The notes under the pieces: generated by a model
Seen by the model: the letters and a program-made list of their open reading frames with translations, nothing else
The model's database searches: none
What the model was told of the DNA's origin: nothing
In this document: positions 3,760 through 62,720 of the stretch, piece after piece
Numbering within the stretch: position 1 is the stretch's first letter
How the letters are laid out: each line of letters opens with the position of its first letter
Program-made: the position numbers and the translations under genes
DNA from: an uncultured bacterium
GTDB lineage: Bacteria; Bacillota_I; Bacilli_A; RF39; UBA660
DNA: 64,000 nt
Assembly (NCBI GenBank): GCA_949293285.1
Contig: CASFCU010000017.1
Location: forward strand, 2,432 to 66,431
Direction: 5' to 3'

Positions 3760-4929
3760 TTACTCACCAAACCCTGTAAATGATAAAGAAAGTCCACCGA
3801 CAGTATTAGCACTATGTTCATTTGAACCATACTCACCAAAAGTAAATACCATTAAAAATTCCTTACCACCAGTTTCCTTAATAACTTCAGGATATATTCT
3901 TGACTCCTCATTAGCAAGTTGTAACCCTAATCTTCTTCCACCACAATGTACTAAAAAATAAGATTGAACTTCTCCCTCTATTTTCTCATTCAACATACGA
4001 ATCACATCTGGATTTGCTTGAATAACAGATTCTGGACTTCCCTCCAATTGAATAACAGCAGTATTTAAAGCTAAATTAGCTCCAATATTCATAGACAAAT
4101 CGTCGTTTGCAAACATAGGATGTCGAACAGCTACCACATTACCAATTGGATCTTTAACTCCCAATGGTGCAAAAATAGTTTCAGCAAGCAACTGAGAACC
4201 CATAAGACTATCAATACTCTTACCTGTCCATTCAGAATATTTCTTAACAGCTGGAACTCCATCAATTTCTGCTAACGTTCTAACACCAGAAAGTTTAGTA
4301 ATAATACCAACATGATTAGTTTCTTTATAGCCACCAGCATAAATATTTTTCATCTCATTGTCCGCAAAGAAGATAGCAATTGCACAACCATCACAGAAAA
4401 CTTTGTCTTTACAAATAATACTCCATTTTCCTTCTACTGTGTTATCAGCAGCACTTCCACCAAATACTGGAATATTACCAATAACATCCTGAACACCCTT
4501 CATATATTCTTCTTCTTCAGCGGGACTTGCTGTCATAAAAAAGTAATCTGGCTCTTTATCTTGGCCTTTTACTTGACTCATTGCTTCTTTAGCTATTCTT
4601 CTTCCAATCTCTCTTGCTGACTCACTAGAAGTTTTTTCACTACCTGCAACAACTACTTCTAAATCACCAGAAAAAGTCATCATTCCCGAATAACCAGTTT
4701 CCTTATTCAAATAACCATCCTGCGTACAAATAGCAGCACTAGAAGTACATCCAATAACAGGAGCACTCATAACACTACTAACACCTCTTAAAAGTTCACT
4801 TTGATTAAGAACAACAGAAGTAAATAATAATCCAACCTTTGCTCCTCCACCATTTGCCATACGTGCAGTTTCAACACCAGAATCAAAAGAACTAGCATTT
4901 TCACTATAACCAACTTTAGTCTTTACCAT
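3760..4929 (-). CDS. FIST domain-containing protein (FIST-N and FIST-C sensor-like domains)
   Basis: 389 aa with a FIST-like architecture and composition; a 2-nt gap to the downstream aldehyde dehydrogenase gene suggests an operon. Confidence 0.5.
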   Translation of the reverse strand: MVKTKVGYSENASSFDSGVETARMANGGGAKVGLLFTSVVLNQSELLRGVSSVMSAPVIGCTSSAAICTQDGYLNKETGYSGMMTFSGDLEVVVAGSEKTSSESAREIGRRIAKEAMSQVKGQDKEPDYFFMTASPAEEEEYMKGVQDVIGNIPVFGGSAADNTVEGKWSIICKDKVFCDGCAIAIFFADNEMKNIYAGGYKETNHVGIITKLSGVRTLAEIDGVPAVKKYSEWTGKSIDSLMGSQLLAETIFAPLGVKDPIGNVVAVRHPMFANDDLSMNIGANLALNTAVIQLEGSPESVIQANPDVIRMLNEKIEGEVQSYFLVHCGGRRLGLQLANEESRIYPEVIKETGGKEFLMVFTFGEYGSNEHSANTVGGLSLSFTGFGE

Positions 4930-5055
4930 AAAACAAAAACTTCATTTTATTACATCTTAAATTAATGTAATAAATCTACTCCTCCTTATTTTAACTATAA
5001 AGCAAAAATAAAAGACAGTCAACAACAGTCAACAGAACATTTAGCATCTTTACGT

Positions 5056-10827: not shown

Positions 10828-10938
10828 CCTTTAATCTAATTTACTTCAATTTTACTATCCAAATGTTGAAACAAATGGTCCTCTATCTTATTCATAATAA
10901 TTTTTTCAATCTTTCTAGCACCATAAACTTCATAATCA
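10828..10938. repeat. 111-bp direct repeat copy 1 (a displaced duplicate of the 3' end of the ClpC-like gene); identical to 14854..14964
   Basis: An exact 111/111 match to 14854-14964; encodes ...DYEVYGARKIEKIIMNKIEDHLFQHLDSKIEVN* on the minus strand but is attached to no gene here. Confidence 0.9.
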
Positions 10939-11043
10939 AATTCTCTCGAGTTTTGTAGCTTGAAAACAAAAAAATAAGCTTTTCATATTTTACATACTAC
11001 AAAAATCGAGTTATATCATATTCCATTATGATTAGTAAATTAT

Positions 11044-14853: not shown

Positions 14854-14964
14854 CCTTTAATCTAATTTACTTCAATTTTACTATCCAAATGTTGAAACAA
14901 ATGGTCCTCTATCTTATTCATAATAATTTTTTCAATCTTTCTAGCACCATAAACTTCATAATCA
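14854..14964. repeat. 111-bp direct repeat copy 2 (the in-situ 3' end of the ClpC-like gene, including its stop codon)
   Basis: An exact match to 10828-10938; spans the last 33 codons, the stop (14862-14864) and 8 nt of 3' UTR. Confidence 0.9.
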
Positions 14965-17132
14965 GATTCTTTGATTACATCATCAATATCAGAAGAATGA
15001 TACTGATAATCAACATGTATTTTATGAATAATTTTATCAAAAGAATTCATCACAATTCTTTTAATATCATCATAACTAAACTTATTAAAAATAATTACTT
15101 TTTCTATTCTATTAATAAATTCCGAAGAAAAATAATTTTTAATACCAGACATTAAAGACTCCTCACTATCTTTTTCAAACCCAATATTCTTTTTATTACA
15201 TCCAGCATTAGAAGTCATAATAATAATATTATTATCAAAACGAAAAACATTTCCAGAAGAATCTTTAATCTTTCCTTCATCAAGAATTTGTAAAAACAAA
15301 TTTAAAACATCAGGATGAGCTTTCTCTACCTCATCAAGCAAAATAACAGAATGCGGTTTATCTTTTATTTCTTCTAGAACACTACTCTTATCTTGATAGC
15401 CAACGTATCCAGGAGGTGAGCCAATAATTTTACTAACAGAATGCTCTTCCTTATACTCACTCATATCCAGTCTAATAATATTTTCTTCTCCAAACATAAA
15501 CTTATTATATTCTTTAGCTAAAAAGGTTTTTCCAACACCAGTTGGACCAACAAAAAGAAAAGAAACTGGCTTTTTATCATATTTAATGCCTAAAGTTATT
15601 TTACGTGTATAATCACAAATTGCAGTTATTGCTTTATCTTGACCAATAATAGTTTTTTTTAAGAAATCTTTTAAATCAGTAATAACCGAAGAAGAAGGAA
15701 CTAACTCATAAACTGGAATATTACTTTTTATTTTAATCACTTCTGCTACCATCTGTTTAGTAACTTCCTTTCTTTTTGTATTCCTCATAATTTTTACATC
15801 CATCTTGTTAATACAACTTTCTAACTTTAACTCTTCTTCTCTTAAATAGACTGCCTCATTAAACTTATTATTTATAATAGCCTCATTCTTTAAATCCTTA
15901 ATTGTTTTAAGTAAATTTTTATAATATATATTTTTTTTAGTCATTTTATCTTCTAAAATAGAAACTTTAGAACAAACTTCATCCAGTACATCAATAGATT
16001 TATCCGGTTGTTTTCTATTATACAAATACTTATTAGATAAAGTAATAATTAATTTCAAAACATCATCATTAATAATAACATTATGATAATCTTCATAAAT
16101 GGATTTTAACCGAGCTAAAATATGATATACTTTTTCTTCATCAGGTTCCGTAATCATAACGGTCTGAAAACGTCTAGATAAAGCTTTATCATCTTCAATA
16201 AATTTTTTATATTCAACAGTAGTAGTAGCTCCTATAATATTTATTTTTCCACGTGCCAAGGATGGTTTCAAAATATTAGAAGCATCAATAGCCCCTTCAG
16301 CACCACCGGCACCAACTAAAGTATGAATTTCATCTATAAAGATAATCACATCATTAGACTCCTCAACCTCTTTTAACATTTTAGTAACCCGCTCTTCAAA
16401 TTCTCCACGATATTTTGTCCCAGAGACTAAACTAGCCATAGATATAGAAATCACTCTCTTATTAAGTAGTTTCGAAGGAACCTCTCCATTCACAATTTTT
16501 CTACTAAGTTCTTCTACAATAGCAGTCTTTCCAACACCAGCATCTCCAATCAATAACGGATTATTTTTAGTTCTTCTACAAAGGATCTCAATAATTCTTA
16601 AAACCTCATCCTCACGATTAATAACAGGATCAAGTTCTCCATCGATAGCTTTTTTATTTAAATTTACACCAAACTCATCAACTAATAATTTATTCTTTAA
16701 TTTCTTACTTTTCCTATTTTGATTAATCTCCTCGTAAAGTAAATCAATATCTACTCCCATACTAAGAAGAACTCTGATAGCAACCCCTTCTCCTTCTTCT
16801 ACAAGAGCTAAAAATAAACTCTCTAAACTAACCTCCTTCAAATTTTTTTCTTTACTAACAATGATAGAATTTTCAATAATTTTTTTTAATAATGGAGTAT
16901 AAATAAACCATTCATTTTCTTTTGAACCAATCCCAACTACATTTATAATTTCTTCTCTAAAAGAAGAATAATCAACACCAAATTCCTTAAGTTTATTGCT
17001 GATAATATTATCTTTTTTCAAAAGTGAAAGAACAAAATGTTCAGTTCCAATATAAGGATGCTTCAAAAGTACCATTTCCTTTTTTGCACCAAGTAATATC
17101 TTTCTTACTTCTTCATTAAACTTTGAGAACAT
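14862..17132 (-). CDS. ATP-dependent Clp protease ATP-binding subunit, ClpC/ClpE-like (two AAA+ modules, N-terminal Clp_N repeats)
   Basis: Walker A motifs GDAGVGKT and GPTGVGKT; Clp_N repeats; the true start MFSKFNEE is at ATG 17132, preceded by AAAGGAGA; ~756 aa. Confidence 0.85.
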   Translation of the reverse strand: MFSKFNEEVRKILLGAKKEMVLLKHPYIGTEHFVLSLLKKDNIISNKLKEFGVDYSSFREEIINVVGIGSKENEWFIYTPLLKKIIENSIIVSKEKNLKEVSLESLFLALVEEGEGVAIRVLLSMGVDIDLLYEEINQNRKSKKLKNKLLVDEFGVNLNKKAIDGELDPVINREDEVLRIIEILCRRTKNNPLLIGDAGVGKTAIVEELSRKIVNGEVPSKLLNKRVISISMASLVSGTKYRGEFEERVTKMLKEVEESNDVIIFIDEIHTLVGAGGAEGAIDASNILKPSLARGKINIIGATTTVEYKKFIEDDKALSRRFQTVMITEPDEEKVYHILARLKSIYEDYHNVIINDDVLKLIITLSNKYLYNRKQPDKSIDVLDEVCSKVSILEDKMTKKNIYYKNLLKTIKDLKNEAIINNKFNEAVYLREEELKLESCINKMDVKIMRNTKRKEVTKQMVAEVIKIKSNIPVYELVPSSSVITDLKDFLKKTIIGQDKAITAICDYTRKITLGIKYDKKPVSFLFVGPTGVGKTFLAKEYNKFMFGEENIIRLDMSEYKEEHSVSKIIGSPPGYVGYQDKSSVLEEIKDKPHSVILLDEVEKAHPDVLNLFLQILDEGKIKDSSGNVFRFDNNIIIMTSNAGCNKKNIGFEKDSEESLMSGIKNYFSSEFINRIEKVIIFNKFSYDDIKRIVMNSFDKIIHKIHVDYQYHSSDIDDVIKESDYEVYGARKIEKIIMNKIEDHLFQHLDSKIEVN

Positions 17133-17356
17133 AAAATCTCCTTTCATAATATATCTTATGTATATATTGAATTCTATTCTCAAAATCTATACAAGAAAAA
17201 ATTTAAAATAAAAATTTTTTAAATATAAACAATCATCTTGTAATTTTAACAAAAATACCAAGATGTTTTTTACATACTTGGTATTTTAGCACTCTTTTCT
17301 CTATTCTTTTATAAGCTAAAATTTCCTATAAAATAAAAAAGAAGTTTCCTTCTTTT

Positions 17357-40003: not shown

Positions 40004-40366
40004 AATTCCACCTCCAAACTAAAATCTACATTATTATAATAATCAAAAACCCGTTTTGTCAATTAAAATAATATCACTAAAATAAAAAGATAGCAACATA
40101 TATCACTAATAAAAAAGAAGATATAAAAAATTATCAACAAAATTAACAACACTGTTAATAACTCAAAATATAACTGTTAATAAAAAATTGTGGAAAATGT
40201 GGAAAAACTATTTTTTCATTATAAATAAACCATATTATTTATGGAAAACTTTGTTAATAATTTGTGGATATTTTTTTTTATTATTTTTTCCTTTTCTTTT
40301 TTCCACATTTAAGTTAAAATATCTTATAGATTTACGCAAGAACGTATCAGGGGAGGTGAGGAAGAA
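40004..40366. promoter_or_regulatory. oriC part 1: AT-rich region with DnaA-box-like 9-mers upstream of dnaA
   Basis: TTATCAACA (40131), tandem TGTGGAAAA TGTGGAAAA (40189-40206), TGTGGATAT (40263), TTTTCCACA (40299); each is within 1 mismatch of TTATCCACA/TGTGGATAA; the leading-strand gene orientation switches here. Confidence 0.7.
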
Positions 40367-41728
40367 GTGGATAATTCTCTTTTATGGTCCAAGATTTTGG
40401 AAAAAATTAAAGCAGAAATCAATTCTTTATCGTATCAAACCTGGTTTGAAGAAACAAAACTATATGATTTAAGTAAAGGTGTAGCAAAAATATTAGTGCC
40501 ATATGCACTACATAAAGATCATTTAGCAAATAACTATAAAAAACTTATTATTTCTTGTTTCATTGAAGAAATAGGAGAATCCGTAGAATTAGAATTTTTA
40601 ATACAAGAAGATTTAATAGAAGATGATAATGACACTCATGAAAAAATATTAGAAGAAAATATCTACAATAATAATACTTTTGAATCGAATCTTAATAAAA
40701 AATATACTTTTGAAAATTTTATTGTAGGAAACAGCAATAGATTTGCCCATGCTGCAGCATTAGCCGTTGCCGAAAAACCGGGAGAAACCTACAATCCATT
40801 ATTTATATATGGAAACAGTGGATTAGGAAAAACACACTTAATGCACGCAATAGGAAACTATATAGAAAAAAATAGCAACAAAAGAATTCTTTATGTAACA
40901 AGTGAAACTTTTGTCTCAGAATTCGTGGAAATAACAAAAAAACAAGAAAATAAAAGCAATTTTGAATACATAGACTTTTTCAAACAAAAATATAGAAATA
41001 TCGATGTATTAATCATTGATGATATCCAATTTCTAGCGGGAGCAACAGAATCTCAAAAAGAATTTTTCCACACCTTTAATAACTTATATGGTGAAAATAA
41101 ACAAATAATTATATCATCCGATAGATCACCAAACGATTTAAAAGTCTTTGAAGATAGACTAAGAACCAGATTTAGTTGGGGACTACCAGTAAATATATAC
41201 CCACCGGACTTTGAACTAAAAGTTGCCATTTTAAAAAAACGGATAGTAGGGGAACAAGTAACAAAAGAGATTCCAGAACAAGTAATTGAATACATGGCAT
41301 CAAATATAGGAACAGATATAAGACAACTAGAAGGCAGCGTAAATAGACTAATGGCATACTCTACCATGATGGGAGCAGAAATAGATTTAAATCTAGCAAT
41401 CGAAGCTTTAAAAGATTATGTAAATAAAGGATTCAGTGAAAAAAATGATGTAAGTAGAATTCAAAAAATAGTAGCAGATTATTTCAAAATATCAATCGAA
41501 GATTTAAAATCAAAAAAAAGAAACGCCGACATTGCGTTTCCAAGGCAAATAGCCATGTACCTATGCAGAAAATTAACCGACGAATCTTTTCCTAAAATAG
41601 GAATAGAATTTGGAGGAAAAGATCATTCTACAGTAATGCACTCTTGTGAAAAAATAGAACAAGAAATAAAAAACAATAAAAGTTTTGCAGAAACGATAGA
41701 TAAATTGGAAAAAGATATTCACAATTAA
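40367..41728 (+). CDS. dnaA: Chromosomal replication initiator protein DnaA
   Basis: GTG start with a GGGAGGTGAGG RBS; AAA+ Walker A GNSGLGKTHL; C-terminal DNA-binding domain; 453 aa. Confidence 0.95.
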   Translation: MDNSLLWSKILEKIKAEINSLSYQTWFEETKLYDLSKGVAKILVPYALHKDHLANNYKKLIISCFIEEIGESVELEFLIQEDLIEDDNDTHEKILEENIYNNNTFESNLNKKYTFENFIVGNSNRFAHAAALAVAEKPGETYNPLFIYGNSGLGKTHLMHAIGNYIEKNSNKRILYVTSETFVSEFVEITKKQENKSNFEYIDFFKQKYRNIDVLIIDDIQFLAGATESQKEFFHTFNNLYGENKQIIISSDRSPNDLKVFEDRLRTRFSWGLPVNIYPPDFELKVAILKKRIVGEQVTKEIPEQVIEYMASNIGTDIRQLEGSVNRLMAYSTMMGAEIDLNLAIEALKDYVNKGFSEKNDVSRIQKIVADYFKISIEDLKSKKRNADIAFPRQIAMYLCRKLTDESFPKIGIEFGGKDHSTVMHSCEKIEQEIKNNKSFAETIDKLEKDIHN

Positions 41729-43066: not shown

Positions 43067-43525
43067 ATGGAAAATTATGAAATAAATGAAGAGACTTATG
43101 CAGTAATATCTGAATATTTTGGACAAACCAAAATTATTGAGAAAGATAGTGAATGGATCATCGAAAGTCAGGCTTATAAGATTATGGATGAAAGCTGTCA
43201 ATATTATGGAAGTAGTTATAAAGGAAGATTAACAGCCTCCAAAAAAATGTTAGAATGTAGCTATAAATTACCAATCGTGGTAGAAGAAAGCAGTTGTCTG
43301 ATATTTTTTCCTACAAAATCTTCACTAGTAGATGATTGTTGTTGGATTAATTTAAACAGTATAAAAAAAGTGGAAAAAGATGGCAAAAACACTAAAATTA
43401 TCTTTAATAATGACAAAGAAATCGTATTGGAAATATCAAAATTATCAATCGATAATCAAATCTATAGATCTACTAAGTTAGAATCATTAATTAAAAAGAG
43501 AATAAATGCAAAAAAAAGGATATAA
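43067..43525 (+). CDS. comK: ComK family competence transcription factor homolog
   Basis: YEINEETYAVIS...SCQYYGSSYKGR...KLPIVVEESSCLIFFPTKSS...CCWINL...SIDNQIYRSTKL aligns block-for-block with B. subtilis ComK (SCRFFGSSYAGR, KPPIMVDPSNQIFLFPTLSS, CGWI, NQVYRTAWL); 152 aa. Confidence 0.75.
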   Translation: MENYEINEETYAVISEYFGQTKIIEKDSEWIIESQAYKIMDESCQYYGSSYKGRLTASKKMLECSYKLPIVVEESSCLIFFPTKSSLVDDCCWINLNSIKKVEKDGKNTKIIFNNDKEIVLEISKLSIDNQIYRSTKLESLIKKRINAKKRI

Positions 43526-49122: not shown

Positions 49123-49153
49123 TTCTAATTCTTCTTTTTTTTGTGGAAAAAGA

Positions 49154-49169
49154 TGTTTCACGTGAAACA
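49154..49169. promoter_or_regulatory. parS: parS centromere-like site (TGTTTCACGTGAAACA, a perfect 16-bp palindrome; 16/16 to consensus tGTTNCACGTGAAACa)
   Basis: Lies within a 20-bp perfect palindrome GATGTTTCACGTGAAACATC, 32 nt after the gyrA stop; embedded in a 57-bp repeat shared with 49840-49888. Confidence 0.8.
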
Positions 49170-49256
49170 TCTAATACTAGAAACGGAGTAAAAGTTTTAA
49201 AATTTAAAATTTAGTAAAGAAAAATTTACAAACCCTAGGATATTTCTATAAAAAAG

Positions 49257-49285
49257 TTGAAATCTTTTTTCACATATAGTAAAAT
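49257..49285 (+). promoter_or_regulatory. Sigma-A type promoter of the SRP RNA gene (TTGAAA -17- TAAAAT)
   Basis: The -35 TTGAAA lies at 49257-49262; a 17-nt spacer; the -10 TAAAAT lies at 49280-49285; a predicted TSS ~49292 coincides with the 5' end of the SRP RNA terminal helix. Confidence 0.65.
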
Positions 49286-49291
49286 CTTGTT

Positions 49292-49372
49292 GATGCAATA
49301 GATACAGCGGAACCAGGTCAGGATTGGAAAATAGCAGCCTTAACGTATATAGTGTCTATGTGCATCATTTTT
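49292..49372 (+). ncRNA. ffs: Small (4.5S-like) signal recognition particle RNA
   Basis: The domain IV consensus is present: ACAGCGGAACCAGGTCAGGATTGGAAAATAGCAGCC (cf. CCAGGUCAGGUCCGGAAGGAAGCAGCC, including the GGAA tetraloop). The 5' GATGCAATAGATAC pairs with the 3' GTGTCTATGTGCATC, which is followed by a T8 run. Confidence 0.8.
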
Positions 49373-49387
49373 TTTGGAGTTGATTGT

Positions 49388-49822
49388 ATGAAAGATGATT
49401 CATATTATATGAATATAGCTTATAGAGAAGCCTTAAAGGCTTTGAAAAAAAATGAAATACCAGTAGGTGCAATAATTGTCTCTAATATTGATGGGAAAAT
49501 TATATCTAAAGGTCATAATTTAAGAGATAGCAAATACATAGTTACAAAACATGCTGAAATCATTGCAATTGAAAAAGCAAATAAGAAAAGGAAAAATTGG
49601 CGATTAAATGATTGTACATTATATACAACATTAAAGCCTTGTGATATGTGCATGTCTGTAATTTTTAGTTGTAAAATACCTAGAGTGATATATTCAGCAA
49701 ATTCAACTTGCTTAAATAATGCAAATAATTGTAGAATATCACAGATAGAAAATAACGAGTTGATTTTAAAAAGTTCATCAATAATTCAAAAAGCATTTGT
49801 TAATATTAGAAATCAAAAATAA
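49388..49822 (+). CDS. tadA: tRNA-specific adenosine deaminase TadA (CDA fold)
   Basis: HAE and PCxxC zinc-binding motifs (KHAEIIAIE ... LKPCDMCMSVI); start ATG 49388 after a GGAG RBS. The ORF-track N-terminal extension overlaps the ffs terminator. Confidence 0.85.
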   Translation: MKDDSYYMNIAYREALKALKKNEIPVGAIIVSNIDGKIISKGHNLRDSKYIVTKHAEIIAIEKANKKRKNWRLNDCTLYTTLKPCDMCMSVIFSCKIPRVIYSANSTCLNNANNCRISQIENNELILKSSSIIQKAFVNIRNQK

Positions 49823-49851
49823 AGAGATAGATCATTATCTGTGGAAAAAGA

Positions 49852-49867
49852 AGTTTCACGTGAAACA
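49852..49867. promoter_or_regulatory. parS: parS centromere-like site, second copy (AGTTTCACGTGAAACA; 15/16 to consensus)
   Basis: Lies 30 nt after the tadA stop, inside the second copy of the 57-bp repeat (tgtggaaaaagaaGTTTCACGTGAAACatagataaaaagaaacggagta). Confidence 0.75.
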
Positions 49868-49905
49868 TAGATAAAAAGAAACGGAGTAGATATTTCCCAA
49901 AAGAG

Positions 49906-49925
49906 AATATTTCCTGGGAAATATT
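49906..49925. promoter_or_regulatory. Noc-binding-site-like palindrome AATATTTCC-TG-GGAAATATT (core ATTTCCTGGGAAAT, 13/14 to NBS ATTTCCCGGGAAAT); may double as the tadA terminator
   Basis: A 9-bp inverted repeat with a 2-nt centre, followed by TTTTAATT; a half-site ATATTTCCC also lies at 49890-49898. Confidence 0.45.
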
Positions 49926-50102
49926 TTTAATTAAAACAGAGAAGATAAAAGATAAATAAGCAAAGATTGTGGAAAAAATATTAGCAACAGAATATTTGGA
50001 AAAATATTGATAAAGAAAAATAAATGTAAATAAATATGTTCATAAAATTTAAGAAATATAAAAAATGTGTTATAATACTAGAGAAAAGTGAAAGGAGGGA
50101 AT

Positions 50103-60429: not shown

Positions 60430-60665
60430 TATATTTTAAATGTAAAGAGGGAAAAGAGAGATAAATAATTCTATCACAAGAGAGTCTTGAAAGGTGGAAG
60501 AAGACATAGAAATTTATCAAAAATGGCTTCCTGAACAGACTAGCATGAATATAGTGATTTATTGCTAGTACGTAAAACGCGTTATGTTTCAAGTGCACAA
60601 ATTTAACATTTGTGAATTAAGGTGGTACCACGGTAAACTCGTCCTTTTTTGGATGGGTTTTTTAT
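60430..60665 (+). promoter_or_regulatory. T-box riboswitch leader (tRNA-sensing antitermination element), probably Met-specific, controlling dut-metG
   Basis: A promoter TTGAAG-17-TATAAT with an extended TG at 60394-60422. Stem I elements AGAGAG...TGAAAGG are present. The T-box sequence AATTAAGGTGGTACCACGG lies at 60615-60633 (cf. AATTAGGGTGGTACCGCGG). A terminator ACTCGTCC-TTTTTT-GGATGGGT + T-run lies at 60637-60663. AUG triplets in candidate specifier loops lie at 60523 and 60545. Confidence 0.75.
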
Positions 60666-60677
60666 TAGGAGGATTTT

Positions 60678-61166
60678 ATGGGAAGATATTTTGAGAAAAT
60701 TAGTTTTCAACAATTTCAAAAAGATATATCCAATGATAAAGAAGTATATAATCAATATCTTCTTCCAAAAAGAAGTACAAAAAAAAGTGCTGGATATGAT
60801 TTTTTTGCAATAGAAAACATTACGCTAAAACCTGGAGAAATAAAAAAAATTCCAACTGGTTATAAAGCAAATTTTGAAAGTGATGAAATGCTTTTATTAG
60901 TTATTAGAAGTAGCATGGGATTCAAGTATAACGTAAGATTAACAAACCAAATTGGTATAATAGATTGTGACTACTATAATAATATTAATAATGAAGGACA
61001 TATTCTAGTATCGTTGCAAAATGAAGGTAAGAAAGAAATTACCATAAAAGAAGGAGAGGCTTATGTTCAGGGAATATTTACAAAGTTTTTAATTTCTGAT
61101 AACGATTGTACCATTACAGAAAGAATTGGCGGGGTAGGAAGTACGAATAAACGAAAGGATGATTAA
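60678..61166 (+). CDS. dut: dUTP diphosphatase (trimeric dUTPase family)
   Basis: Motif III SAGYDF; RSSMGFKYNV; motif V-like RIGGVGSTNK; 162 aa; an AGGAGG RBS directly after the T-box terminator. Confidence 0.75.
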   Translation: MGRYFEKISFQQFQKDISNDKEVYNQYLLPKRSTKKSAGYDFFAIENITLKPGEIKKIPTGYKANFESDEMLLLVIRSSMGFKYNVRLTNQIGIIDCDYYNNINNEGHILVSLQNEGKKEITIKEGEAYVQGIFTKFLISDNDCTITERIGGVGSTNKRKDD

Positions 61167-61169
61167 ATT

Positions 61170-62720
61170 ATGGAAAAATATTATATATCTACAGCAATAG
61201 CATACACTTCAGCAAAACCACATATTGGAAATACTTATGAAATTGTTTTAGCAGATGCAATAGCAAGATACAAAAGACAAAAAGGATTTGATGTATATTT
61301 TCAAACTGGAACGGATGAGCATGGAGAGAAAATCCAACAAAAAGCGGAAGAAAAAGGAATAACTCCACAAGCTTACGTAGACCAAATAGCAAATGAAATT
61401 AAAAGAATATGGGATATCATGGATACTAGTTATGATAACTTTGTAAGAACTACAGATAAAAATCATAAAGAAAAAGTTCAGAAAATATTTAAAAAGTTAT
61501 ATGATCAAAACGATATATACAAAGGAAAATACGAAGGATTATATTGTACACCTTGTGAATCTTTTTTTACTGAAAGTCAACTAATAGATGGAAAATGCCC
61601 AGATTGTGGAAGGGAAGTACACAAAGCAAGTGAAGAAGCATACTTTTTTAGACTTTCAAAATATCAAGATAGACTATTGCAATATATTCAAAATCATCCA
61701 GAATTCATTCAACCAGAATCTAGAAAAAATGAAATGATAAATAATTTTCTAAAACCAGGACTACAAGATTTATGTGTTTCTAGGACATCATTCACTTGGG
61801 GAATTCCAGTTGATTTTGATCCAAAACATGTTATATATGTTTGGATAGATGCATTATCTAATTACATAACAAACATTGGTTACGACACTGAAAAACCTGA
61901 AGAAAAATTCAACAAATATTGGCCAGCAGATTTGCATTTGATTGGCAAAGATATCATCAGATTCCATACTATATATTGGCCAATATTATTGATGGCCTTG
62001 GATTTACCATTACCAAAACAAGTTTTTGGTCATCCATGGTTACTGTTTGGTCAAGATAAAATGAGTAAATCTAAAGGAAATATTATGTATGCAGATGACT
62101 TAGTAAACTATTTTGGAGTAGATGCCATAAGGTATTATGTTCTTCATGAAATTCCTTTTGCTAATGATGGATCTATTAGCTACGAATTAATCATTGATAG
62201 AGTTAACAGTGACTTGGCAAATGTATTAGGAAATCTGGTAAACAGAACAATTTCTATGGCAAACAAATATTTTGATGGTAAAGTAACAAATAAAAAAATA
62301 CCTACAAGCTACGATAGTGATCTAATTGAAAAAATAAACTCATTGGATAAAAAAGTAGCAGAAAAAATGGATAAACTTGAAATCGGGGCAGCACTGGATG
62401 AAATATTCGACTTATTGAGAAGAAGTAACAAATATATAGATGAAACTACACCATGGATTCTAGCTAAAAATCCTGAAGAAAAAGAAAAATTAGAAACAGT
62501 AATATACAACTTATTAGAATCCATAAGAGTAGCAGCTATAGAGTTAAAACCATTTTTACCATCCACTAGCCAAAAAATTCTTGAACAATTGAACACTAAC
62601 ATAGAAGAAGAAAGATTTTTAGAAAAACAAAAGTATGAAACCTCGATACCAGTTCCACTATTTCAAAGAATAGATAAAGAAAAAAAACTAAAAGAGATAG
62701 AAGAACTATCTAAAAAGTAA
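61170..62720 (+). CDS. metG: Methionine--tRNA ligase (short form lacking a C-terminal tRNA-binding domain)
   Basis: HIGH motif KPHIGNTYE; KMSKS motif DKMSKSKGN; zinc knuckle CPDCG; 516 aa. Confidence 0.95.
   Translation: MEKYYISTAIAYTSAKPHIGNTYEIVLADAIARYKRQKGFDVYFQTGTDEHGEKIQQKAEEKGITPQAYVDQIANEIKRIWDIMDTSYDNFVRTTDKNHKEKVQKIFKKLYDQNDIYKGKYEGLYCTPCESFFTESQLIDGKCPDCGREVHKASEEAYFFRLSKYQDRLLQYIQNHPEFIQPESRKNEMINNFLKPGLQDLCVSRTSFTWGIPVDFDPKHVIYVWIDALSNYITNIGYDTEKPEEKFNKYWPADLHLIGKDIIRFHTIYWPILLMALDLPLPKQVFGHPWLLFGQDKMSKSKGNIMYADDLVNYFGVDAIRYYVLHEIPFANDGSISYELIIDRVNSDLANVLGNLVNRTISMANKYFDGKVTNKKIPTSYDSDLIEKINSLDKKVAEKMDKLEIGAALDEIFDLLRRSNKYIDETTPWILAKNPEEKEKLETVIYNLLESIRVAAIELKPFLPSTSQKILEQLNTNIEEERFLEKQKYETSIPVPLFQRIDKEKKLKEIEELSKK

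Follow-up and report, generated by a model that had tools for sequence, protein, structure and literature searches.

Predicted centromere units combining parS, a DnaA box and a Noc-binding site near the replication origin of an uncultured bacterium

We analysed 64,000 nucleotides of contig CASFCU010000017.1 from an uncultured bacterium (the window, meaning this whole 64-kb stretch of DNA), in which two similar repeats, one after gyrA and one after tadA, lie close to the replication origin. These repeats are probably origin-proximal chromosomal centromere sites, each with a parS motif at which the partition protein ParB (Spo0J) is predicted to bind. The same degree of probability covers the explanation as a whole, in which the centromere region is built of repeat units combining up to three predicted protein-binding sites, namely parS, a DnaA box and a Noc-binding site (NBS), with the mechanism set out below. 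Each of the two belongs, as one unit, to a tandem array whose copy number varies. Feature coordinates are collected in Table 1.

Both window sites match the 16-bp palindromic parS consensus TGTTNCACGTGAAACA. A search over both strands returns four matches, that is two sites, where 0.15 are expected, and none of 100 shuffles reaches this count; the preliminary description of this DNA, which had named one perfect core and one with a single deviation, is right on this point. No third parS occurs in the 64-kb window with up to three mismatches. The sites parS-1 and parS-2 lie 9.0 and 9.7 kb to the right of the oriC box cluster. The first is identical in 10/10 strain contigs, and the variant carried by the second is common to all strains. 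The surrounding modules, described earlier as near-identical, form a direct repeat of 61 nt with 80% identity (49137-49197 against 49835-49895; repeat family D9). Its mismatches are concentrated in the 8-9 nt following parS, and the left-hand TGTGGAAAAAGA and right-hand AGAAACGGAGTA are the same in both copies.

We read the left flank of each repeat, TGTGGAAAA-AGA-parS, as a DnaA box separated from parS by 3 bp. The word TGTGGAAAA occurs nine times in the window, where 1.07 copies are expected; the copies include a tandem pair in oriC (40189-40206) and those at 49142, 49840 and 49968, so each module does begin with a DnaA-box-like 9-mer that is also tandem in oriC, as had been noted. The last three copies, read as TTTTCCACA, fit the DnaA-box 9-mer TTWTNCACA and lie within ~830 bp of one another, outside oriC. 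This word, TGTGGAAAA/TTTTCCACA, is the most frequent box variant in the organism's own oriC, with three of the six boxes (40189, 40198 and 40299), and the perfect TTATCCACA is absent from the whole window. It had been remarked that the repeat is longer than parS and that the excess is unexplained. For the left flank this is no longer so, since the 9-mer accompanies parS across a clade of 27 related genomes and thereby appears as its DnaA-box partner. In the strains and two further related species (L118; L120/121) the right-flank motif survives in the form A(A/G)AACG(A/G)AG; it is not conserved in a species with 67-bp units nor in farther relatives. This block, AGAAACGGAGTA, may be a lineage-specific site or mere slow decay. 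Compared by eye with the parS and NBS half-sites, it has GAAAC in common with the parS half-site, at a spacing that is unconvincing.

Variation among strains was assessed on ten contigs (L001-L010) encoding identical tadA. Module 1 is invariant in 10/10 of them. After tadA, a second full unit can be read directly in L002, L006 and L008, and the array copy number across strains is one or at least two. On L002, Tandem Repeats Finder gives a period of 129 with 2.1 copies and 92% matches. In the window the full unit is followed by a degenerate one, and the junction at this remnant, beginning AAAGATTGTGGAAAAAGAAAGTTTCAC, opens the full second unit in L002, L006 and L008. The strains differ in the length of the box-parS spacer (3 or 4 bp), by G or A in the right-flank motif, in the tail and at the NBS centre; no polymorphism was found in the box or the parS core of the contigs compared. 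In eight of the ten contigs the sequence stops 30-283 bp beyond tadA, still inside the array, and the single unit plus remnant of the window could itself be an assembly collapse. The recurrent assembly break in these metagenome-derived genomes is explained by the array being a variable tandem repeat. The tadA homologues of relatives are mostly on short contigs, and several scaffolds of close relatives have N gaps within the array.

The preliminary description had proposed an alignment of the modules with related genomes, and this comparison finds parS arrays in the syntenic spacers of 27 relatives, with a box beside parS. One genome per species was scanned with the pattern TGTGGAWAAN{3,6}GTTTCACGTGAAAC, which places the box word next to the parS core, and 103 loci were returned. 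The clade set comprises 30 loci. Their 27 genomes bear the labels uncultured Tenericutes, Bacilli, Mollicutes or Erysipelotrichaceae and probably sit among RF39-like gut lineages. These loci have a G+C content of 23-32%, gyrA is 59-75% identical to that of the window, and the order recF-gyrB-gyrA-spacer-tadA-spacer-dnaX-ybaB-recR is shared. The gyrA-tadA-dnaX spacers are 0.5-2 kb of non-coding DNA with 1-11 parS sites about 110-350 bp apart and up to 11 boxes in ~2 kb; the unit sequences are otherwise unalignable between genomes. Closer relatives (tadA 63-72% identical) have true tandem arrays in which perfect NBSs alternate with parS. For example, one species (L114-L117, at about 4440-5010) has a 67-bp unit of NBS plus parS whose copy number ranges from 3 to 8.6 between samples, and a second (L120-L122, at about 4520-4940) has an 82-97-bp unit composed of NBS, AGTGGAAAA, the parS variant TGTTACACGTGAAACA and AAAAGAGAACGAAG.

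Regarding the NBS, the core ATTTCCTGGGAAAT in the window is the sole match within one mismatch of the consensus ATTTCCCGGGAAAT in 64 kb, where 0.00 are expected, and this core lies 41 bp beyond parS-2. The Noc-site-like palindrome beside copy 2 had been proposed from its 13/14 match, and the proposal is strengthened by the other strains: in most of them the post-tadA palindrome is a perfect ATTTCCCGGGAAAT, and a perfect CCCGGG core stands at the window NBS position in L001, L003, L006, L008 and unit 2 of L002. In the relatives, NBSs within one mismatch number 1.12 per kb in the array zones against 0.12 elsewhere in the loci, about a 9-fold difference. Perfect or near-perfect NBSs also recur in relatives at fixed positions, at the recF/gyrB junction (L039 1230, L042 1958, L048 1245, L083 2170) and just past the dnaX-aligned region (L030 2044, L041 4243, L057 4065, L061 3437, L101 7848), which suggests conserved NBSs at gene ends.

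The window also encodes the predicted readers of both kinds of site. Two ParB paralogues had been placed 18 kb away; both are present, at a distance of 16-20 kb. The shorter has the specificity residues R173, M179, S184 and S201 (GKSR...NM...S...SHAR), which are of the parS type in a scheme where that type has an invariant R173 and permits S at 201 (PMC7383237). The longer, Noc-like paralogue has Q173, K179, A184 and R201 (GKTQ...NK...A...RHAR), which are of the Noc type; in the same scheme Noc specificity consists of Q173, K179/K184 and R201, and one lysine suffices (PMC7383237). The suggestion that the repeats are candidate loading sites for Spo0J and Noc thus gains on two counts, the elements being non-random and the paralogues carrying parS-type and Noc-type residues. 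The Noc-like protein has a ~190-aa serine/asparagine-rich low-complexity insert, followed by a Noc-like C-terminal domain (...YQITIKVDKNI). Its gene adjoins rsmG, as noc does in the B. subtilis genome.

The pairing of box and parS was counted at unforced parS sites, defined as those not imposed by the scan pattern (85 of the 128 clade sites). At 41 of these 85 (48%), an outward 9-mer within one mismatch of TTATCCACA lies inside 18 nt, compared with an expected fraction of 0.011 from the local background and 3/85 for the inward-orientation control. Over all 128 sites, TTWTCCACA is present exactly at 63 and within one mismatch at 93, while random array positions give 0.7% and 2.7%, respectively. 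Between box and parS lie 0-7 bp, most often 2-4; no parS has a box on both sides, and the CCACA end of the box points away from parS. As a negative control, loci of other phyla from the same scan have a box at 5/114 unforced parS (4%; Fisher p = 2e-13, a value that overstates independence because array units are duplicates). Since the box is so rare there, the pairing is a property of the clade and not of parS in general, and a pairing common to all bacteria is rejected.

Hits beyond the clade are mostly one-offs or lineage-specific cases. One GC-rich metagenome-assembled genome (MAG) labelled 'Terriglobus sp.' (CAXUHI01) has at least ten loci on eight contigs (L016, L019, L021, L022, L045, L064, L077, L091, L094 and L110) with the extended motif TGTGGAAAA then (T/G)ATGTTTCACGTGAAACAT; this box-plus-parS repeat is dispersed, unlike the usual origin-clustered parS. 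The word TGTGGATAAYCAGTGTTTCACGTGAAACAT is common to Lachnospiraceae and Butyricicoccaceae genomes (L026, L028, L031, L046, L052 and L070), and in the loci whose surroundings can be read it opens a cluster of about four parS upstream of parA, the rest of which have no box.

These counts bear directly on the possibility that function resides in the 16-bp parS cores alone, the box-like word and AGAAACGGAGTA having been carried along passively when one segment with a parS was recently duplicated nearby. Such an origin would account for the evident duplication of the two window copies, the growth of the array by tandem duplication, the restriction of the right-flank motif to close relatives and the loss of the box in one relative. 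It would not explain why the box is kept beside parS in 27 genomes with unalignable units, in fixed orientation and at 0-7 bp, or why its frequency at unforced sites (48%) so exceeds the background (1.1%) and the other phyla (4%). Moreover, the mismatches between the window repeats cluster between conserved blocks. We therefore regard passive duplication as unlikely, although it is the strongest of the alternatives.

The composition of the 9-mer argues against a second possibility, that it is a third ParB half-site (of the half-parS type GTTCCAC/GTTTCAC) extending the ParB landing pad rather than a DnaA box. The word TTTTCCAC is one position off the parS half-site TGTTCCAC, and ParB is known to bind half-parS heptamers, in P. 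aeruginosa among others (PMC7022226). The position matrix of the 93 elements reads T-T-W-T-C-C-A-C-A. Position 2, where the half-site has G, is T in 92/93 and never G, and position 9, following CCAC, is A in 92/93, where parS has G. At position 3 the aligned elements divide evenly between A (47) and T (45). The variants TTATCCACA, TTATCAACA, ATATCCACA and TTATTCACA match the DnaA-box consensus and oriC boxes: the minority forms TTATCAACA and ATATCCACA found beside parS are also among the window oriC boxes, and TTATTCACA, also found beside parS, fits TTWTNCACA. The variable spacing of 0-7 bp likewise favours a separate protein. On this matrix the half-parS reading of the 9-mer is rejected, and we hold it to be improbable.

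A third possibility is that the modules act at the level of RNA or transcription, as terminators after gyrA and tadA or as DnaA-dependent operators of the ffs and dnaX promoters. Their palindromes do fold better than shuffles (z = -2.4 to -3.2), and promoter-like sites follow the modules at distances of 67 nt and ~125-200 nt, that of ffs being TTGAAA-17-TAAAAT at 49257-49285. The hairpins, however, are the parS and NBS palindromes themselves, whose sequence is invariant across species save at the known degenerate parS position, so that the fold z-scores merely reflect the palindromes. No terminator-like site was found, Rfam at E <= 1 gives the signal recognition particle (SRP) RNA alone, and relatives have up to 11 units in 2 kb without a matching number of promoters; we reject this explanation as very unlikely. 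Least credible of all is a selfish minisatellite or miniature mobile element with a chance parS-like palindrome, for although copy number varies, assemblies break and one Terriglobus MAG has a dispersed box-plus-parS repeat, the units occur in the window and 27/27 relatives, are confined to the syntenic gyrA-tadA-dnaX spacers rather than dispersed, and have no visible terminal inverted repeats or target duplications. None of these four explanations fits the clade data as well as a centromere built of composite units.

Besides the non-independence of array units, several observations weigh against the centromere reading. First, the NBS of the window carries a central mismatch. Second, the Noc-like protein scores 288 bits, below the NCBIfam TIGR04285 cut-off of 315, and is without the N-terminal extension, so that the N-terminal membrane-targeting helix of the B. 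subtilis Noc model is not found in it. Its alignment starts at MENNEIVYLYL, and the open reading frame (ORF) listing, which takes the first start after the upstream stop, permits no longer N-terminus; the ORF begins ~25 residues later than B. subtilis Noc. This difference bears on the mode of Noc action, not on the DNA site. Third, the 67-bp-unit species (L114-L117) has kept parS and NBS without a recognizable box; at least one lineage can therefore do without it. Finally, the side of parS on which the box stands varies among genomes, with 66 on the right and 16 on the left (left in the window, L099, L105 and L106; right in most others), and L075 has a few inverted cases. As the side differs between genomes, a fixed polarity towards oriC is disfavoured.

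We compared the predicted centromere with known systems. It resembles the parS-ParB(Spo0J)-ParA(Soj) system of Bacillus subtilis and other Firmicutes in the consensus TGTTNCACGTGAAACA, the origin-proximal position of the two window sites, R173 of ParB and the location of parA-parB beside noc and rsmG. The parS of B. subtilis are, as far as is known, separate single sites, many of them within genes, whereas the sites described here are repeat units in dedicated non-coding spacers, each parS typically paired with a DnaA box. The arrays of the relatives, in which as many as 11 sites lie 110-350 bp apart or 67-bp units are repeated in tandem, also differ from the eight origin-proximal parS of B. 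subtilis (PMC3245932). In its layout the array described here also resembles iterated plasmid centromeres: sopC of plasmid F consists of head-to-tail repeats, each with one inverted-repeat site for a ParB-family protein. Head-to-tail repeats with one such site per unit are found here as well; unlike sopC, the array is chromosomal, has canonical chromosomal parS, and its units also carry predicted sites for two other proteins.

Regarding the DnaA box, there is a parallel in Caulobacter crescentus, whose parS region contains boxes that DnaA binds; segregation there begins only with the help of DnaA (Mera et al. 2014, as related in the review PMC6399470). In both cases an initiator recognition sequence lies inside the centromere region, and a coupling of initiation to segregation is proposed. 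As far as the review relates it, the Caulobacter case is unlike the present one: the phylum is another, and here a single box accompanies each parS, 0-7 bp away and in a fixed orientation, across arrays and 27 genomes. The boxes also recall the DnaA-box clusters (DBCs) of B. subtilis and datA of E. coli in that several lie outside but near oriC. Deletions of the origin-proximal clusters and of spo0J in B. subtilis are synergistic for over-initiation, and the two act in parallel in restraining initiation (PMC3245932). Unlike DBCs and datA, which are separate from parS, the boxes here are a whole repeat unit apart and each is tied to parS. Finally, the NBS shares with those of B. subtilis and S. 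aureus the palindrome ATTTCCCGGGAAAT and a Noc paralogue with Q173/K179/R201. Known NBSs occur all over the chromosome save in the vicinity of the terminus (PMC7383237), whereas the sole NBS in 64 kb lies 41 bp from parS and relatives alternate NBS and parS. The Noc-like protein itself departs from B. subtilis Noc in the missing N-terminal extension and the ~190-aa S/N-rich insert.

In the proposed mechanism, ParB/Spo0J dimers would load at the two parS 16-mers, in the gyrA-ffs and tadA-dnaX spacers 9-10 kb from oriC, and give rise to the partition complex. Beside each parS, at a distance of 3 bp, domain IV of DnaA would bind the TTTTCCACA 9-mer, which is also the main box variant of oriC, and the Noc paralogue would load at the ATTTCC(C/T)GGGAAAT palindrome 41 bp beyond parS-2. 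Tandem duplication would gain and lose units, so that copy number differs by strain and arrays evolve fast between species, while parS, its DnaA-box partner and the NBS would be retained despite this change. We infer all protein binding and the physiological role from comparison of sequences. Most likely, the role of the box would be to retain DnaA at the centromere, acting there either as a DnaA sink close to the origin or as a point coupling initiation to ParABS segregation. With a geometry of 2-4 bp, direct contact or competition between DnaA and ParB is plausible. The arrangement suggests that a single stretch of DNA serves replication, segregation and division control. More tentatively, DnaA might in this clade of gut Bacilli with reduced genomes be a built-in part of the partition complex, with ParB and DnaA on every unit and Noc loaded largely from the same array. 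If so, one fast-evolving 'satellite' of composite units would physically couple initiation, origin segregation and division-site control, a coupling architecture so far undescribed for any bacterial chromosome.

parS, NBS and DnaA boxes are each known; what appears to be new is their pairing, the interleaving of NBS and the tandem polymorphic arrangement. A search of full-text literature found neither one-to-one box-parS pairing nor alternating parS/NBS arrays, nor a tandem polymorphic centromere; its coverage is incomplete, which makes it weak evidence of novelty. The link between initiation, segregation and division is still argued case by case, from Soj-DnaA in Bacillus, DnaA at parS in Caulobacter and Noc-initiation in Staphylococcus. 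Here, three recognition sequences stand in one unit with position and geometry conserved across many species, and a DNA of ~60-130 bp would provide a substrate for testing cooperation or competition of ParB, DnaA and Noc with purified proteins. Bacterial chromosomal centromeres can, moreover, act as variable-number tandem repeats.

Table 1. Coordinates of the predicted centromere elements, their candidate binding proteins and reference features in the window
Feature	Position	Strand	Remarks
parS-1 TGTTTCACGTGAAACA	49154..49169	.	16/16; perfect 16-bp palindrome, 22-bp palindrome counting flanks
parS-2 AGTTTCACGTGAAACA	49852..49867	.	15/16
DnaA-box-type 9-mer (TTTTCCACA on minus)	49142..49150	-	3 bp from parS-1, CCACA end distal
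DnaA-box-type 9-mer (TTTTCCACA on minus)	49840..49848	-	3 bp from parS-2; 4 bp in some strains
Right-flank motif AGAAACGGAGTA, copy 1	49179..49190	+	Identical in both repeat copies
Right-flank motif AGAAACGGAGTA, copy 2	49877..49888	+	AGAAACGAAG in other strains
Extra Noc half-site-like ATATTTCCC	49890..49898	+	Upstream of full palindrome; in every strain unit
Noc-binding-site palindrome AATATTTCCTGGGAAATATT	49906..49925	.	14-mer core ATTTCCTGGGAAAT at 49909-49922, 13/14 to ATTTCCCGGGAAAT
One full ~129-bp unit of post-tadA array	49840..49967	+	Box, parS, right motif, half NBS, NBS, A-rich tail
Degenerate last unit	49968..50008	+	Third TGTGGAAAA at 49968-49976, without parS; decayed palindrome AATATTTGGAAAAATATT at 49991-50008
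ParB/Spo0J, 296 aa	29594..30484	-	TIGR00180, 209.6 bits; predicted reader of parS
ParA/Soj ATPase, 263 aa	30459..31250	-	ParA-family matches; synteny rsmG-noc-parA-parB
Noc-like ParB paralogue, 451 aa	31722..33077	-	TIGR04285, 288 bits; predicted reader of NBS
oriC DnaA-box cluster	40131..40374	.	Upstream of dnaA; six DnaA-box-like 9-mers; reference for box variant
SRP RNA gene (ffs)	49287..49374	+	Rfam RF00169, 50.6 bits; between module 1 and tadA

The window has a G+C content of 28% and an origin region of the Firmicute type. The gene strand flips at the origin, being minus up to rnpA/rpmH and plus from dnaA on; the plus-strand order is dnaA (40367-41728), dnaN, a ComK-family ORF, recF, gyrB, gyrA, tadA, dnaX, ybaB and recR. 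An rsmG / Noc-like / parA / parB operon occupies 29.6-33.8 kb. The boxes of the oriC cluster are TTATCAACA, two copies of TGTGGAAAA, TGTGGATAT, TTTTCCACA and AGTGGATAA, and three further DnaA-box-like 9-mers are found in the dnaA-dnaN spacer. The DNA around the modules had been described as free of genes, which does not hold for the gyrA-tadA spacer: it contains ffs, which places module 1 between gyrA and ffs. Proteins identical to the window tadA product occur on metagenome contigs only (ENA, Logan); as each record found for the organism is a metagenome assembly, it appears to be uncultured.

Three minor features were recorded elsewhere in the window. The ComK-family ORF (PF06338; 152 aa, 43067-43525, plus strand) lies between dnaN and recF and has weak homologues at the same position in relatives L042, L083 and L093. 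A 117-nt repeat with 99% identity is found at 10828-10944 and 14854-14970; its second copy is the 3' end of a 773-aa ORF (14862-17183, minus strand), and the first is a detached gene-end duplicate in a spacer. Lastly, a T-box leader (RF00230, 101.7 bits) at 60436-60649 on the plus strand lies upstream of ORFs at 60678-62720.

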